The notes beneath the pieces were generated by a model, which worked only from the letters and a program-made list of their open reading frames with translations, did no database searches and had not been told where the DNA came from. The translations under genes and the position numbers were made by a program. A stretch of 59,615 bases of DNA, the filler included. It is 9 parts of 9 records of this genome, joined end to end, with 100 filler letters (N's around TTAATTAATTAA, not from the genome) between each part and the next. Parts side by side here need not be neighbours in the genome. Positions count along the whole stretch, not along the records: positions 5,473 to 10,986 come from SRR31156797_55753; 8 more parts are not named here. The stretch is one strand, 5' to 3'. Of this stretch, positions 5,373 through 11,087 are shown piece by piece. Within the stretch, counting starts at the first letter, position 1. Each line of letters begins with the position of its first letter.

Positions 5373-5472
5373 NNNNNNNNNNNNNNNNNNNNNNNNNNNN
5401 NNNNNNNNNNNNNNNNTTAATTAATTAANNNNNNNNNNNNNNNNNNNNNNNNNNNNNNNNNNNNNNNNNNNN

Positions 5473-5505
5473 TGTGGATGCGCAACGGTTACTTTTGTTA
5501 GCATT
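5473..5505 (-). repeat. Partial attC-like site (inverse core of cassette 5), cut by contig end
   Basis: GTTAGCATT (5497-5505) is the exact reverse complement of AATGCTAAC (6216-6224). Confidence 0.65.
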
Positions 5506-5514
5506 TCGGTTTTT

Positions 5515-6192
5515 TTAATCTTTTTTCTTAAGGTCTTTTGTTTTAATTATTGATACAAAATGACTGAAGGAATTTCCAGCAAGATAGGTTATTCTCTGAG
5601 TAGCTGCCAAATGCAGTGATACTGCGAAAAATATTAAGATTGTTAGCGAGAAGTAAAATAAAATACTACTGGAAGTAATCATGGTCTTTAGAATAGAATT
5701 AGAAAACAAACTAAATGAACTAAGTATTAAGAGTAGTAACCAATATACAACTATCAAAAAAGATGTTCTCGACATTCTATAAAGCCTCATTTGATAATTA
5801 TAATCATGATTATATGATTCGCTTTGTTGCACCACATAATTATGCATTAAGTAATTCAGTTTTTTTAAATCATCTGTATTATCATTTATTTCTATTCCAA
5901 ATGTATTTTCAATTTCTTCTTTGGCTAATAAAATATAAGGTCTGTTTTTTATTAGATATCTTTTCCTAATTTTCTTTTCTATAGCCCAGAAAAAATATAT
6001 AGATGCAATGGAATTAAAGCTTAATCCACATAAATAAGCTCCACTAACAATAACTAATCCAAAAAATAAATTATTCTTGATAGCAAACATTTGAGTTATT
6101 ATTGTTTCGGGAATTAAGAATAAAAATGAAGCTTCAATTAAAACTCCAGCTAGAATGAATTCTATTAAATTTGAAGGATATTCAATTTTCAT
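5515..6192 (-). CDS. Cassette 5: hypothetical membrane protein (about 4 TM, 225 aa)
   Basis: Intact ORF with N- and C-terminal hydrophobic helix pairs; fills the cassette. Confidence 0.75.
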   Translation of the reverse strand: MKIEYPSNLIEFILAGVLIEASFLFLIPETIITQMFAIKNNLFFGLVIVSGAYLCGLSFNSIASIYFFWAIEKKIRKRYLIKNRPYILLAKEEIENTFGIEINDNTDDLKKLNYLMHNYVVQQSESYNHDYNYQMRLYRMSRTSFLIVVYWLLLLILSSFSLFSNSILKTMITSSSILFYFSLTILIFFAVSLHLAATQRITYLAGNSFSHFVSIIKTKDLKKKD

Positions 6193-6217
6193 AACATATT
6201 GTCTTTTTTTAACTGAA

Positions 6218-6346
6218 TGCTAACGTTCTTGCTAAAAATTGAGGGCGATATACAACTACCGCCTTATTAAAACCGCTAGCGTTTATTGTTTTTATTAACT
6301 TATCTAATTGAGCATCACCGTCCATTGATTTTAATTTTTGTTAGGC
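6218..6346 (-). repeat. attC-like site (129 bp)
   Basis: Minus strand GCCTAAC...GTTAGCA with imperfect arms TTAAAATCAATGGACGGTGAT / ATCGCCCTCAATTTTTAG. Confidence 0.7.
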
Positions 6347-6360
6347 AATCGTTTTGTTTA

Positions 6361-6657
6361 TTACAGCATGGAAATAAATTTTAATATAACACCTGCCATT
6401 AAAATTAGTAAGTCTATTACTATTCCTACTTTGATTTTGAATTTAAGCCTTATTACTCCAACTCCAATTAAAATACCAATAGCTCCAAGGATTGAATTAA
6501 ATAGTAAAACCCAATCTGGATACATTGAATAAAAGTAAATTCCAGTAGAATGATATAAGTATAACAAATATAAATTATCCCAAATCCAGTAAAGATTAAT
6601 TCCAATTATTACTAATCCTGTTAGGAGATTCCATTTTAATTGAATTACCTTATTCAT
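6361..6657 (-). CDS. Cassette 4, ORF b: small membrane protein (98 aa)
   Basis: Three hydrophobic segments; overlaps the upstream ORF by 8 nt. Confidence 0.65.
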   Translation of the reverse strand: MNKVIQLKWNLLTGLVIIGINLYWIWDNLYLLYLYHSTGIYFYSMYPDWVLLFNSILGAIGILIGVGVIRLKFKIKVGIVIDLLILMAGVILKFISML

Positions 6658-6961
6658 TCTTTAGTTTTTTATTTATCTCTGCTTCCAAATTCTTCCAAAT
6701 TTCTAAAATTATATTTGTCTTGGAATTGGCGATGCTTATCAGCTTTTCCCCATAATTCGAAAGAAAAATTTTTTTATTTTTCTCTAAAACAATTCCTTTT
6801 TGTATCAACCATTTTATTGATTCTTCTAATTCTCTATTCGTCGGAACGGCATGATTTATTCCGTCTGCAATTTCAGATATTTCTTTTCTCGCTGCTGGGG
6901 ATTTTTGAGAGGCAAAAGCTATCGCCAAAAGAATCCATGATATGGTCGTTGTTTTTTTCAT
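6650..6961 (-). CDS. Cassette 4, ORF a: hypothetical protein, possible winged helix (103 aa)
   Basis: ATG 16 nt after the GTTAGGC core; 'ELEESIKWLIQKGIV...IFLSNYG' resembles a wHTH helix and wing. Confidence 0.6.
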   Translation of the reverse strand: MKKTTTISWILLAIAFASQKSPAARKEISEIADGINHAVPTNRELEESIKWLIQKGIVLEKNKKIFLSNYGEKLISIANSKTNIILEIWKNLEAEINKKLKNE

Positions 6962-6970
6962 TTAAATGTT

Positions 6971-7026
6971 GCCTAACAGTAAATTGCATGCACCATAAGG
7001 GAGTTCGTGGTATTCCTTGGTTGCCA
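6971..7026 (-). repeat. Short atypical recombination-type site (56 bp)
   Basis: Minus strand TGGCAAC...GTTAGGC; weak hairpin; shares ATGCACYATAAG with the site at 10941. Confidence 0.55.
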
Positions 7027-7033
7027 GCAGTTA

Positions 7034-8077
7034 TTAATTAAGCTTTTTAATTTTTGCTTTTATTAATTCAAGATCCGTGTCTTTAAGTTCTAGTTTTATT
7101 TTCATATCCAATGAAATTGTGATGTCAGATTTTATGTCAAAATAATGATTGTTTTTATCAATACTTAAGCCAATTAATGTTATTTTTTCTCCAATTGGTA
7201 CATTTATATTTTCAATACTTTCACTTAGTGATATTATACTTTTATAATTTTGAAAAACACAAAAGTATTTCACATTTGATTTTTTATTTGAGGATATTTC
7301 AAGTGTAGTAATGTTTTCAAAATCTAGAAATTTGTCGAGGTTTATCCAATTTATTTTTAAAGAATTATACACTAATCCAATATCACTACTATATTCCAAA
7401 CCTGCCTCAGTATATATATCACCATAATATATAGTGTCAATTTGCTCTCCTGAAAAATAAGTAATGATCGAATCAATCTTTGTATAATTTCTAGTCCATA
7501 AAATTGAATCTAATGAAATCTTTCCAATCGGAATTTTAAAATTTCTATCATTGTTTATTTGAAAATAATCACTGATTGTCAGTCTATTATTTAGGAAAAC
7601 TCTATAATTTGCAGTTATTGTATCTGGAGTCCAGTTTATAGTATTTTCTAAAACTTGTCCATTAAAAATTTGATAATCTACATAATCGGTGTTTTCAATA
7701 AATTTTACGGAAATAGGCTTATTAATTCTTTCAATTTTTGTTGAGTTTCTAAATAACTCGATACAAATCATTCCTTTGGAGTCTAGAATCCTATCGTTTG
7801 AAGTTGTACTTAAGCCAGCAAAAATCATTTCTGATTTATTATAGTATTCTGCCAATTTTACTTTTATTGTATCAGTCGGATTTATATTTTTTACAATATC
7901 TTTTGGTAGATGAATTAATGTTCCCTTAATACCTGTCAATATTGTATCATTATTACCAATCATTTTAAATTCTTGTTCATTTTGATACCTCTGTGATTTA
8001 ATAAAATCGTCCGTAGTATATTCAACATTACATCCTATCAAAAGTCCTAAAATGCATACTATAAATGCTTGTTTCAT
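7034..8077 (-). CDS. Cassette 3: putative lipoprotein (347 aa)
   Basis: Lipobox-like signal 'MKQAFIVCILGLLIGC'; intact ORF filling the cassette. Confidence 0.75.
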   Translation of the reverse strand: MKQAFIVCILGLLIGCNVEYTTDDFIKSQRYQNEQEFKMIGNNDTILTGIKGTLIHLPKDIVKNINPTDTIKVKLAEYYNKSEMIFAGLSTTSNDRILDSKGMICIELFRNSTKIERINKPISVKFIENTDYVDYQIFNGQVLENTINWTPDTITANYRVFLNNRLTISDYFQINNDRNFKIPIGKISLDSILWTRNYTKIDSIITYFSGEQIDTIYYGDIYTEAGLEYSSDIGLVYNSLKINWINLDKFLDFENITTLEISSNKKSNVKYFCVFQNYKSIISLSESIENINVPIGEKITLIGLSIDKNNHYFDIKSDITISLDMKIKLELKDTDLELIKAKIKKLN

Positions 8078-8103
8078 ATTTTTTCAAGGTTAGTTTAAAT
8101 TAC

Positions 8104-8290
8104 TGGTAACGGCAGTCTGTCTAATAATTATTTTAAAGTCTCTGAGAATTGATTATTTTATAATTTCAAAAACTCTTGTTCAAATGCTTTAAAGTAACCT
8201 TCTACTTTTTAGACAGTCTGACGTTCAGTATAAATGGCTAGCCTTATGTTGCGCCCGCGGCAAGGCTATGACATTTATACATTGTTGTGC
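8104..8290 (-). repeat. attC-like site (75 bp once the MITE is removed)
   Basis: Minus strand GCACAAC-AAT-GTATAAATG..TAGCCTT-loop-AAGGCTA..CATTTATAC-TGAAC-[MITE]-GTTACCA. Confidence 0.75.
8113..8220. mobile_element. 108-bp MITE-like insertion
   Basis: TIRs CAGTCTGTCTAA / TTAGACAGTCTG (11/12, or 15/18 when extended); flanks ACGG and ACGT resemble a 4-bp target duplication. Confidence 0.7.
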
Positions 8291-8302
8291 TGTCGAGGTT
8301 TA

Positions 8303-8941
8303 TTATTTACTTAGCCTTTTTACTGTCAATACAAAACTATTTGCGAACTGAATGGCTCGAAAATGACACATAAACATTAACCCACCAAAAATCAAACAAA
8401 GAATCCAATTATCAACGGTCAAGCAGATAATTGTTCCCAAAAGTGTCGTAGTATATAATCCCTTAAACAAATCATTTAATGTATACCAATAATTTGCAGG
8501 TCCAAAGTTGTCCTTAATCTGTAATTGCGCACATGATTCCCAAAAGTGCTCGACACTATTCCATGTCTGATTAGTTTTATTCTCAAGTACTACAGAATTT
8601 ATAACCTTATTCTTATACATAAAGAAGTGAACCATTTTTCTAATAAACTCAACAATCCAATACTTTCTAATATTCCATTTTGTCAGTTTGGAGTGAAACG
8701 CTTTATACGTTTTCAGAGATAGGAAACCTAATCCGTGAAGTAGGTGTCCCAGTATATAAATTAATGGAATAACTATGATTACTAGAAGTCCTGCAAACTC
8801 CTTTATAAAAGTATGTTTCGAAAAGAAATCTTCAGTGATATTCAAAATAGATTCGAAGAAAATTAAATCCAAGGCTAATAATAGAAAAGCTCCTGAAGAG
8901 AAATAAACTAGAAAATCTCGAAGTGTAAAATTTGTTGTCAT
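8303..8941 (-). CDS. Cassette 2: hypothetical membrane protein (about 4 TM, 212 aa)
   Basis: Intact ORF; 2 N-terminal and 2 C-terminal hydrophobic helices around a soluble middle. Confidence 0.75.
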   Translation of the reverse strand: MTTNFTLRDFLVYFSSGAFLLLALDLIFFESILNITEDFFSKHTFIKEFAGLLVIIVIPLIYILGHLLHGLGFLSLKTYKAFHSKLTKWNIRKYWIVEFIRKMVHFFMYKNKVINSVVLENKTNQTWNSVEHFWESCAQLQIKDNFGPANYWYTLNDLFKGLYTTTLLGTIICLTVDNWILCLIFGGLMFMCHFRAIQFANSFVLTVKRLSK

Positions 8942-8999
8942 TAGCTATGATTGTTATTGTTCTGTTAATTATGAATTTAGAAGTCGTTCCCTCCATGCA

Positions 9000-9080
9000 G
9001 CACAACGGCTAGGCTATGAAGCGTACTTTTTTGTGTTGCGCCTGCGGCAAAAAAGTATGATTTATGAGCCATTGTTACCA
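9000..9080 (-). repeat. attC-like site (81 bp)
   Basis: Minus strand TGGTAAC-AAT-GGCTCATAAATCATACTTTTTTG-loop-CAAAAAAGTACGCTTCATAGCC-TAGCC-GTTGTGC; loop 16/17 identical to 8247-8263. Confidence 0.8.
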
Positions 9081-9094
9081 TTCGTTATTTCTAT

Positions 9095-10903
9095 TTAAGG
9101 TTTACAAATTATATAAGTCTCTGCACTAACCTCATTACAACTTGAAATAAGAGATGAGATAAACCATAAAATCTGTATGACCTCATTACGCTCTTTGAAT
9201 GTCTCATTATTTTTCAGTTTTTGAAGCCTATCTGTCAATTCTAATTTTGATATGAAATTAATAACTAGGTATACTTTCTTTGTTAAATTAGGCTGTGATT
9301 TTAGATTTTTAAAATAGTCTATCGCATCATCAGAATTACTTCCTTTCCTTATCCTATGAATTTGTGTCGTTGTTTTATCTAATACATAATCTCTATCCCA
9401 AAACTTTTGTTTCATTTCCCATTGGTTATCTGCTGGACTTAAATTTCCGAGATTCTTTTGAGCTTGCCCAACAATGTCTTGAAATGCTGATGCTGAAAAT
9501 TTAGATTCCTTGTACTTGGAATGGAAAAATGAAATGTTATTTTCGTCAAGACCTATATGGTCAGCCCATTCTTTCCCCAAATCATCGCAAATAAAGAACT
9601 TAAAACTTGAAAGGTATTTATCTTCAACGAACCCGAATATTGAACCTGCATTGAATTCTGTTGAAGTCGGAAGAACACTTCCTTTTTCACTAGAAACACT
9701 ACTTAAATCTGTGCTAGGCTTGAAAACGCTCAAAAATGCATCCGTATTTGCCAGCAATCTACTATCCTTAAATAATTTACGATGGCTGTAAACAAGTTCA
9801 ACCCTGTCAAAATTAATTATGTAACTACTGGTTCTATTAAAGAAATCAATAATAGACAATTCTGTTCCATCTGTAAGTTTTATCATTAATTTTTTCAACT
9901 TACTTGAACGTAGAGTTATCGATTTTGGATTTATTGACAGAGACAAATCATTAACAAAAGGATTAAGTATTTTAAAGTAAGAGTTACCTTCATTGCTAAC
10001 TAATTCTTTCACCTCCATAAGCCTAGAGAAATTATTTAGAATTGAGATAACATCAATTTCTTTTTCATACTCTTCAAATATAAGTTTTGTAGATTCAATT
10101 CTATTTGCCTCATATTCATCATATAATTTCGTCAATAAAAGCAAAATAGCTATAGGTTTTAATGAGCTATTTTCTTTCTCAAAATCTAGAGGTGTAGCAA
10201 AAGATGTAAGGAAATTTTCAGATGCTTTAAAGTTCTCAATTTTATCAATGATATTGTCAGACCACGATATAAAGAAATCAATATTACTTTTCTTTCCAAA
10301 TTTATTAATTCTTGATGAGCCCAATGAAAGAGAAACTTTATCATCGTCGTTACTAACTCTTAAATTGCTTGGAATATATGTTTGTAAACCTAACGAAGAG
10401 ATACTCTCTTTTAAATCAACAGCTTCAACACTTTTAGAACGAACAGCATTATCTGAAATATTCATATTGTTCATTGATATTTTTTCAAATGCAGTATCTT
10501 CATCAATAAATAATGAGGAAATTGTATTATAGTCTAAAGGGAAAATCCTTTTACTTAATTCCTTTGTTCCAGATATATTTCTTTTTGATACAGCTATATA
10601 GTTTTCAAAATCTACAATTACAATATAAGCGAGTTTAACTTCTTCCCAATCTTTCAATTCTTCATCTATAAAACTTGGTTTTTTAGGATATTTAAACACA
10701 CAAATAGAATATTCTACATCCTTATTGTTCACTTTCGTTTTACTTTTTATTACTCTTAATAAGTAATTCCCCATTTTGTCAGAAGAAGCTTCTTTAAATG
10801 TTGTATCGATTAATTTTTTAGATAAAATCCCCTTTTTTATCTTTTTGTAGAAATAAGCATTTTCATTTAAAGTAAGATTATTTATAAGTTCATTTTCTGT
10901 CAT
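9095..10903 (-). CDS. Cassette 1: 602-aa protein with a putative C-terminal PD-(D/E)xK-like nuclease domain
   Basis: Intact ORF; C-terminal 'CDDLGKEWADHI...FFHSK...SASAFQDIVGQAQKN' resembles a restriction-endonuclease-fold active site (function inferred). Confidence 0.65.
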   Translation of the reverse strand: MTENELINNLTLNENAYFYKKIKKGILSKKLIDTTFKEASSDKMGNYLLRVIKSKTKVNNKDVEYSICVFKYPKKPSFIDEELKDWEEVKLAYIVIVDFENYIAVSKRNISGTKELSKRIFPLDYNTISSLFIDEDTAFEKISMNNMNISDNAVRSKSVEAVDLKESISSLGLQTYIPSNLRVSNDDDKVSLSLGSSRINKFGKKSNIDFFISWSDNIIDKIENFKASENFLTSFATPLDFEKENSSLKPIAILLLLTKLYDEYEANRIESTKLIFEEYEKEIDVISILNNFSRLMEVKELVSNEGNSYFKILNPFVNDLSLSINPKSITLRSSKLKKLMIKLTDGTELSIIDFFNRTSSYIINFDRVELVYSHRKLFKDSRLLANTDAFLSVFKPSTDLSSVSSEKGSVLPTSTEFNAGSIFGFVEDKYLSSFKFFICDDLGKEWADHIGLDENNISFFHSKYKESKFSASAFQDIVGQAQKNLGNLSPADNQWEMKQKFWDRDYVLDKTTTQIHRIRKGSNSDDAIDYFKNLKSQPNLTKKVYLVINFISKLELTDRLQKLKNNETFKERNEVIQILWFISSLISSCNEVSAETYIICKP

Positions 10904-10923
10904 AGGGTTTGTTTTTTAATGAA

Positions 10924-10986
10924 TGGTAACTAGTTAGGAAATGCACTATAAGTGCACAATACATACCCTATAGGTCAGTATTGTGC
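10924..10986 (-). repeat. Array-proximal recombination-type site (attI-like or second attC class), cut by contig end
   Basis: Core GTTACCATTC is complementary to 9074-9083; followed by ATGCACTATAAG and a 9-bp inverted repeat GCACAATAC/GTATTGTGC around CCTATAGG. Confidence 0.5.
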
Positions 10987-11087
10987 NNNNNNNNNNNNNN
11001 NNNNNNNNNNNNNNNNNNNNNNNNNNNNNNTTAATTAATTAANNNNNNNNNNNNNNNNNNNNNNNNNNNNNNNNNNNNNNNNNNNNG

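Follow-up and report, generated by a model that had tools for sequence, protein, structure and literature searches.

Which recombinase moves gene cassettes whose boundary hairpins carry the AAC and GTT cores of integron attC sites in a non-classical geometry? This question is raised by a contig of 5514 nucleotides (nt; positions 5473-10986, record SRR31156797_55753) within a 59,615-nt stretch of DNA, the whole of which we call the window. The contig has a GC content of 28.9% and carries six open reading frames (ORFs), all on the minus strand, with an AAC...GTT hairpin site after each. An earlier note on this DNA had singled out two of these sites, here called site A and site B, as hairpins with 3-nt and 5-nt spacers and a shared apical loop, and had proposed that they serve a recombinase with a specificity different from that of a classical integron integrase (IntI). 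We read the contig as part of a gene-cassette array of a marine bacterium of the Bacteroidota, probably near Marinilabiliales. Judged from sequence, the hairpins are genuine sites of cassette recombination in an integron-like system, and their geometry is non-classical. Overall, we consider it rather likely that the contig is an attC-type cassette array with non-classical sites, and that its enzyme is Xer/XerA-like rather than a classical IntI.

Cassette boundaries and site geometry

All six sites on the contig have AAC...GTT ends with inverted 7-nt cores. The inner core of each site was the reverse complement of the outer core of the next, perfectly over 7 nt at four of the five junctions (three of these reach 9 nt and one reaches 10) and at six of seven positions at the fifth. 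Such complementarity between neighbouring sites is what one would predict if each cassette can close into a circle. The same rule was observed in the array of genome G223, where 68 of 76 consecutive junctions were perfect. The earlier note had also reported that several cores deviate from GTTRRRY. This was borne out by four of the five distinct 7-nt cores on the contig (GTTACCA, GTTGTGC, GTTAGCA and GTTGCCA), and GTTAGGC fits the consensus. Among the inner cores of G223, GTT was present in 77/77 and the full GTTRRRY in 12/77.

Site B (9000-9080, plus strand) consists of the core GCACAAC, the spacer GGCTA, a stem, a loop at 9034-9047, the spacer ATT and the core GTTACCA. A single G is bulged at position 15 on the 3' arm, the arm where a bulge is expected. 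Read on the ORF strand, the site is AAC-AAT-stem...stem-TAGCC-GTT, exactly as had been claimed. Site A proper (8223-8290, plus strand) has the spacer GTTCA (5 nt), a stem, a loop at 8247-8260 (closing bases to 8263), the returning stem, the spacer ATT (3 nt) and the inner core GTTGTGC (8284-8290). Its outer core TGGTAAC (8104-8110, plus strand; GTTACCA on the ORF strand) is parted from the hairpin by a 112-nt insertion at 8111-8222 (plus strand). This insertion resembles a miniature inverted-repeat transposable element (MITE), has the inverted-repeat ends GGCAGTCTGTCTAA / TTAGACAGTCTGAC and sits directly after AAC. The pattern of five nt followed by GTT, which had been given for both sites, holds at site B; at site A, TGAAC is followed by GTC, because the 112-nt element at the crossover point splits the outer core from the hairpin. 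Once the insertion is removed, site A follows the plan of site B: AAC, GTTCA, stem, ATT, GTT.

The two sites share the 17-mer TGTTGCGCCYGCGGCAA, which lies exactly where it had been reported, at 8247-8263 and 9034-9050 on the plus strand. With up to three mismatches allowed, three matches were found in the window compared to 0.41 expected. The arms beside the loop are, again as described, unlike between the two sites yet complementary within each. A TCA irregularity (TGA on the plus strand), which had been read as a common internal mismatch, is indeed present 9-10 nt into both stems. It is not a conserved unpaired feature, because relatives of site B have either a G.A mismatch or an ordinary G-C pair at this position. 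At site A the stem is interrupted by no more than a small asymmetric internal loop ~9 bp from its base, and the classical two bulges are absent.

Classical attC sites, according to the part of the source available (PMC5027507), have a central spacer of five to six bases in each arm and a variable terminal structure, and the arm that faces AAC carries two or three extrahelical bases, at positions 16 and 23/24 with 6 bp between them. The standard of ~5 nt on both sides used in the earlier note was therefore roughly right. By comparison, the spacer measured 5 nt on one arm and 3 nt on the other at both site A and site B, and 4-5 nt against 0-2 nt in relatives. Extrahelical bases amounted to the one bulged G at site B and to none at the sites of G223. 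The terminal structure was a 14-nt loop that was identical on at least 52 stems, in a search that used the loop itself.

As controls we used two class 1 integrons, retrieved by tblastn with a Bacteroidota IntI query. With the same folding script, aadA2 gave spacers of 5/4, 3 bp, a bulge, 6 bp and a bulge, and dfrA25 gave 2/2, 5 bp, a bulge, 6 bp and a bulge; the automatic core pick failed for dfrA12. The family layouts were 4/2, 4 bp and one bulge for the site B type, 5/2, 20-21 bp and no bulge for the G223 type, and 4/0 and 23 bp for the Chitinophaga-labelled type. Because classical sites can pair part of the spacer too, as dfrA25 does, the difference in arm length is the firmer measure. The 3' arm was the longer one in both controls. 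In 71 of 102 family sites the 5' arm exceeded the 3' arm by 1-4 nt, the remaining 31 being mostly wrong automatic choices of GTT, and in G223 the arms measured 25 and 22 nt in 77/77 sites. An asymmetric spacer and one bulge also characterize the loop-less site types of these arrays. The 5/3 spacer asymmetry is real, and it is a property of the system, not just of sites A and B.

Stem covariation and the apical loop

Relatives were collected by a 17-mer scan over one genome per species, which gave at least 120 loci; by our own arithmetic, about a hundred matches would be expected by chance. Among the 120 matches listed, 64 were in GC-rich (≥45% GC), unrelated contexts. The other 56 were in AT-rich DNA, and 44 of those parse as AAC...GTT hairpins. 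Among the matches listed, the hosts of these hairpins were almost all Bacteroidota, of several orders: Saccharicrinis, Carboxylicivirga, Marinifilum, Labilibacter, Putridiphycobacter, Flavobacterium and Chitinophaga-labelled metagenome-assembled genomes. The few loop-bearing bins with other taxon labels are probably mis-binned. A site in Marinifilum sp. RC60d5 (L110) is identical to site B except for the outer cores, and its equivalent in Putridiphycobacter roseus (L023) differs, outer cores aside, by one spacer base.

In an even sample of 301 Bacteroidia genomes, the 14-nt loop occurred in 26 and a reversed-pattern control in 2. When the 3'-arm 14-mer was searched with one mismatch allowed, matches were at chance level (229/301 genomes, controls similar); only exact matches were used. 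An energy-threshold scan for AAC...GTT hairpins caught the strongest sites only and missed weak ones. Genome G001 carries seven loop-bearing sites, and the site B type is also present in the arrays of G001 and G002. In G223 we observed 77 loop sites within 77 kb, all on one strand, and here the whole sites, not the loops alone, are nearly identical. The G223 array (L170-L173, G223:C1:466000-543400) also holds many repeats, often in tandem runs, of a ~376-bp cassette without an obvious long ORF, whose core GTTGTGC is found on 35 of the 77 sites.

An alignment of 39 sites with MAFFT and RNAalifold matched the stem top only, because the arms differ in length, and it was replaced by a count of pairs by distance from the loop. 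The 207 distinct contexts included 119 with at least 8 of 10 pairs beside the loop, and these gave 52 distinct 20+20-nt arm pairs. Over positions 1-14, 93.6% were paired, compared to a mean of 60% with shuffled partners (maximum 67%, 500 shuffles). Sliding the register by 1-2 nt left 31-46% paired. Two to six pair types were present at each of positions 3-16. The stems covary, with pairing kept. The earlier claim that structure is conserved without sequence was right about the stems and overstated as a whole, since the loop, the core-adjacent AACG and a TATG motif in the arm keep their sequence. Likewise, the proposed 3-nt/5-nt geometry stands in its spacers, its 17-nt loop segment and its covarying arms, and fails in the GTT assigned to site A.

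We folded both strands of sites A and B, a check that the earlier note had advised, and the plus strand folded better at each (site B, −15.1 versus −12.7 kcal/mol; site A, −13.7 versus −11.5 kcal/mol). The z-scores of the two sites were −2.8 and −3.6 on the plus strand and −2.1 and −2.4 on the minus strand. Across the family, G.T wobbles had G on the 5' arm and T on the 3' arm almost exclusively, with GT pairs far outnumbering TG pairs, so that the complementary strand would carry A.C mismatches. Strand skew by such wobbles is described for classical attC sites in the available part of one source (PMC5027507). The better fold of the plus strand and the one-sided wobbles are consistent with a substrate that folds as a single strand. 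DNA folding also predicted a 3-bp mini-hairpin with a 2-nt bulge in the loop interior, on the plus strand only.

Does the shared loop matter? It is possible, though on balance doubtful, that the loop is functionless and has been kept only by recent common descent from one array, such as that of G223, together with horizontal spread. Near-identity of whole sites in G223 would fit this, as would the fact that relatives were found by a loop search, which guarantees identical loops. Sites with the same lower stem and another apical part also exist, so the apical and stem modules are separable. However, the exact 14-17 nt are found on at least 52 different stem pairs, with two to six pair types per position, in several Bacteroidota orders. 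Unpaired DNA should change no more slowly than paired DNA. Within G223, the only common variants are T and G at loop position 1 (51 and 21 of 77 sites), and the other five sites have rarer single or double changes. If the loop does act, it may, at a guess, help the correct strand to begin folding or be contacted by a protein.

Recombinases and mobile elements in related genomes

The different recombinase foreseen in the earlier note has a candidate in relatives, where Xer-type genes stand beside the arrays. On the contig itself, which is 5.5 kb long and clipped at both ends, neither a recombinase nor an attI site was found. A recombinase ORF of ~470-680 amino acids (aa) lies directly upstream of arrays and in the same orientation in G223, in G003, in G002 and twice in G001, giving five platforms. 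In G223 this ORF (543625-545148) encodes a tyrosine recombinase and lies immediately past the last site, on the same strand as the cassettes. Between it and the array we observed the motif AGCTTCGCCTCCTCA and then a short hairpin preceded by AAC, the start of the first cassette. The platform in G003 and both platforms in G001 have the same arrangement and motif as G223. The motif AGCTTCGCCTC follows the recombinase in four of the five platforms; it was not found in G002, which has an IS91-like element at the attI-like junction point. The two G001 platforms are identical up to AAC and have different cassettes beyond it. This divergence exactly after AAC directly marks the junction between the attI-like site and the cassettes.

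An alignment with IntI1 and the IntI of G001 showed that the platform recombinases retain the catalytic residues as well as the C-terminal SPLD motif. The IntI-specific insertion is missing from them, and they carry an additional N-terminal region of ~200 aa. Their best NCBIfam model was the XerA-like NF040815 (242 and 241 bits, cut-off 220; 198 bits for the G002 protein). Against TIGR02249, the integron integrase model, they scored 178-188 bits (178 for the whole G223 protein), below the cut-off of 265. A low-confidence structure model (mean pLDDT 62) was matched by Foldseek first to XerA (5hxy) and then to VchIntIA (2a3v), over the catalytic part only. The N-terminal domain was also found in five metagenomic proteins. 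The many tyrosine recombinases of 286-309 aa inside the G002 and G003 arrays were considered as array enzymes and set aside on the evidence of two types: the 295-aa type of G002 (scored as a 308-aa frame) belongs to a 2465-bp IS91-like element, and one copy of the 286-aa type adjoins a similar IS91-like element end. In relatives, gene order and protein family together support the link to a different recombinase well.

A less attractive explanation, and one that we think unlikely, is that these are ordinary attC sites recombined by a classical IntI, and that their odd spacer, lone bulge and loop are a lineage flavour, like the Vibrio cholerae repeats (VCR). The AAC and GTT cores, the boundary rule and the hairpin fold are indeed all classical, and taxon-specific attC sequence is known from the available part of one study (PMC8352920). 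Bona fide IntI genes also occur in Bacteroidia, two of them (383 and 356 bits) in G001, which has seven loop sites as well, and one (422 bits) in G285. However, the G001 loop sites lie 55 kb to 1 Mb from its IntI genes and in the wrong direction for them. No clear cassette array was seen around the G001 classical IntI, where a different repeat of ~150 nt occurs on both sides of the gene. This repeat, at L129 ~4120, 6130 and 8990, has an internal inverted repeat and is not obviously attC.

The distribution of IntI genes and of the loop also argues against this explanation. G223 has its 77 sites without one: no TIGR02249 match there exceeded the 265-bit cut-off, and the best were two partial stretches of 97 and 88 bits, in the recombinase ORF at 543625-545148. 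TIGR02249 exceeded its cut-off in 2 of the 301 sampled Bacteroidia genomes and in one of five genomes with these sites, in a tally for which only the best few candidates were scored in some genomes, whereas the loop was present in 26 of 301. Beside the G285 IntI, the single clear site (L228 114-186, G285:C40), read by eye, is laid out in the classical way: its spacers are 6 and 5 nt long, and a G and a T are bulged with 6 bp between them. Bacteroidia thus contain systems of both kinds.

Two kinds of mobile element were found at fixed points of the sites. Relatives of the element at 8111-8222 were read at ten loci in G001, and eight of these are copies of 113-115 nt; every copy follows xxxxAAC without a gap, and in seven cases an attC arm clearly comes next. 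This ~113-nt MITE family, with loci including L005 5863-5975 and L218-L227, always has one orientation. Two long G001 copies share the MITE end; L220, the copy that was examined, codes for a DDE transposase (PF13751). The second kind is the 2465-bp IS91-like element (L077 1317-3781; L133-L136), which encodes a transposase with Y2_Tnp and Zn_Tnp_IS91 domains and its own 295-aa tyrosine recombinase. One Saccharicrinis genome carries five near-identical copies, which occupy five different attC-type sites, always at the inner GTT. Each copy ends in its own attC-like hairpin, and a similar end is present at the left edge of the G223 array.

That the hairpins are transcription terminators or generic intergenic palindromes is very improbable: they do fold just downstream of ORFs, but neighbouring sites have complementary cores, the sequences of two identical platforms part right behind AAC, mobile elements of two kinds have their insertion points exactly at the cores, and the better folder is the DNA strand opposite the ORFs, not the mRNA-sense strand.

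We therefore return to the attC-type array with a Xer/XerA-like enzyme as the favoured explanation. One strand (here the plus strand, opposite the ORFs) would fold into a hairpin, and a tyrosine recombinase would probably cut at the conserved AAC at the hairpin base. Cassettes would leave as circles and then re-insert. The sites have an asymmetric central spacer, with 4-5 unpaired nt on the AAC arm and 0-3 on the GTT arm, and at most one bulged base in place of the classical two or three. Their strand asymmetry comes partly from the one-sided G.T wobbles, and one site family, which includes sites A and B, keeps the invariant 14-nt apical loop TGTTGCGCCYGCGG. The enzyme is probably a Xer/XerA-like protein without the IntI-specific insertion and with the ~200-aa extra N-terminal domain; its gene would lie upstream of the array, co-oriented with it and followed by a conserved attI-like site, as in relatives.

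Several observations weigh against this explanation. The link to a Xer-type enzyme comes from relatives only, because the contig has no recombinase or attI. The C-terminal family of the recombinase is represented in 134 of 301 Bacteroidia genomes, a count in which the unpublished genome G099 is included. Its N-terminal domain, queried with a single sequence, was found in one of the 301, G223, so the platform is either rare or too divergent for the query. G001 has recombinases of both kinds, so a classical IntI could act there. The bulged G of site B is only 1 nt off the classical position (15 versus 16), and some 120-nt sites in related arrays carry a bulge at the classical distance. The automatic choice of GTT gave implausible arms in about a quarter of the sites. 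The 8/10 hairpin filter inflates pairing at positions 1-10, although the unfiltered positions 11-16 were still 81-94% paired. Finally, the relatives were sought with the loop, so that their loops are identical partly by selection; this biases the comparison of loop with stem.

Cassettes on the contig and comparison with known systems

The window is not one continuous genome piece. It consists of nine separate contigs (29-62% GC) joined by eight linkers, which are N-runs around TTAATTAATTAA at 5373-5472, at 10987-11086 and at six further places; the other eight contigs are irrelevant to the sites. An Rfam scan of the whole window gave 0 matches, and no Pfam match was found among the six ORFs of the contig. 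The contig opens with the 3' end of an attC-type site clipped by the contig start (5473-5503, plus strand). The inner core of this site, GTTAGCA (5497-5503), is together with its flank the reverse complement, over 9 nt, of the core and flank at 6218-6224. It is followed by a cassette ORF of 225 aa (5515-6192, minus strand) without a Pfam or PADLOC match. An attC-type site without the conserved loop comes next (6218-6346, plus strand), with the cores TGCTAAC (6218-6224) and GTTAGGC (6340-6346).

A single cassette at 6361-6961 (minus strand) holds two small ORFs of 98 and 103 aa, neither with a family match. They overlap by 8 nt, a layout typical of toxin-antitoxin pairs. Beyond it are a short attC-type site with a weak fold (6971-7026, plus strand; cores GCCTAAC at 6971-6977 and GTTGCCA at 7020-7026) and a cassette ORF of 347 aa (7034-8077, minus strand). 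Site A separates this ORF from one of 212 aa (8303-8941, minus strand), and neither has a family match. After site B, the cassette ORF of 602 aa (9095-10903, minus strand) matched the PADLOC candidate defence family PDC-S71 over its full length (E 6.7e-220); a candidate phage-defence gene travels here as a cassette. The contig closes with the 5' part of another attC-type site, clipped by the contig end (10924-10986, plus strand), whose outer core TGGTAAC (10924-10930) is part of a 10-nt reverse complement of the core and flank at 9074-9080.

In the available part of the IntegronFinder 2.0 survey, very few integrons are reported in Bacteroidetes (PMC9024848). A taxon-specific attC study covers 11 taxa and never mentions Bacteroidetes in the part of its text available (PMC8352920). 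No published description of a Bacteroidota Xer-type cassette system was found in the literature searched. If our explanation is true, integrons extend into a phylum where surveys report almost none, and the integron way of life can run on different hardware, with sites that lack extrahelical bases and a recombinase that lacks the I2 helix. It would also expose a large cassette pool, with candidate phage-defence genes among its members, that may escape tools based on IntI and on models of classical attC sites, and the conserved loop would offer an easy way to search metagenomes for such cassettes.

One view is that integron integrases came to recombine folded single-stranded attC sites through an added helix, I2, which reads the extrahelical bases (PMC7790495, in the part available). 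A more speculative proposal, which we would not expect to hold, is that the 14-nt loop and the asymmetric spacer replace the extrahelical bases as the signal for strand and orientation. A Xer-type integrase that never gained the I2 helix of IntI would recognize this signal through its extra N-terminal domain, and the system would then be a second, independent solution and a distinct class of integron.

Several known systems share parts of this arrangement. Classical integrons have their own attC-targeting insertions, the IS1111-attC group and the group IIC-attC introns. Like these, the MITE/DDE and IS91-like elements described here have a fixed insertion point and a fixed orientation. They differ in their enzymes, which are DDE_Tnp_1_6 in one case and Y2_Tnp with a tyrosine recombinase in the other, and in their points of insertion, which are after AAC and at the inner GTT.

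Integrons with an "inverted integrase" occur in Spirochaetes, Chlorobi and others. As in the platforms studied here, their integrase is transcribed in the direction of the cassettes. Those integrases are described as still carrying the IntI additional domain, whereas the proteins studied here do not. XerA and XerCD acting at dif are alike in protein family, since NF040815 is the closest curated family and 5hxy the closest structure (from the low-confidence model). They resolve dimers at one duplex site, whereas the gene studied here heads an array of hairpin-bounded cassettes and encodes an extra N-terminal domain.

The sedentary chromosomal integrons, such as that of Vibrio cholerae with its VCR, are parallels in array design. 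Both have a long array of mostly unknown one-gene cassettes, whose ends are imperfect palindromes with AAC...GTT cores, and in both the core of a cassette pairs with its own far end. Sites are near-identical within one host in both (here the 77 sites of G223), and one strand folds better. In contrast to the V. cholerae integron, the platform recombinase here lacks the insertion specific to IntI, is extended at the N terminus and shares the orientation of the cassettes. Differences extend to the sites, with an asymmetric spacer, zero or one bulged base compared to the classical two or three, and an apical loop that is conserved across hosts.

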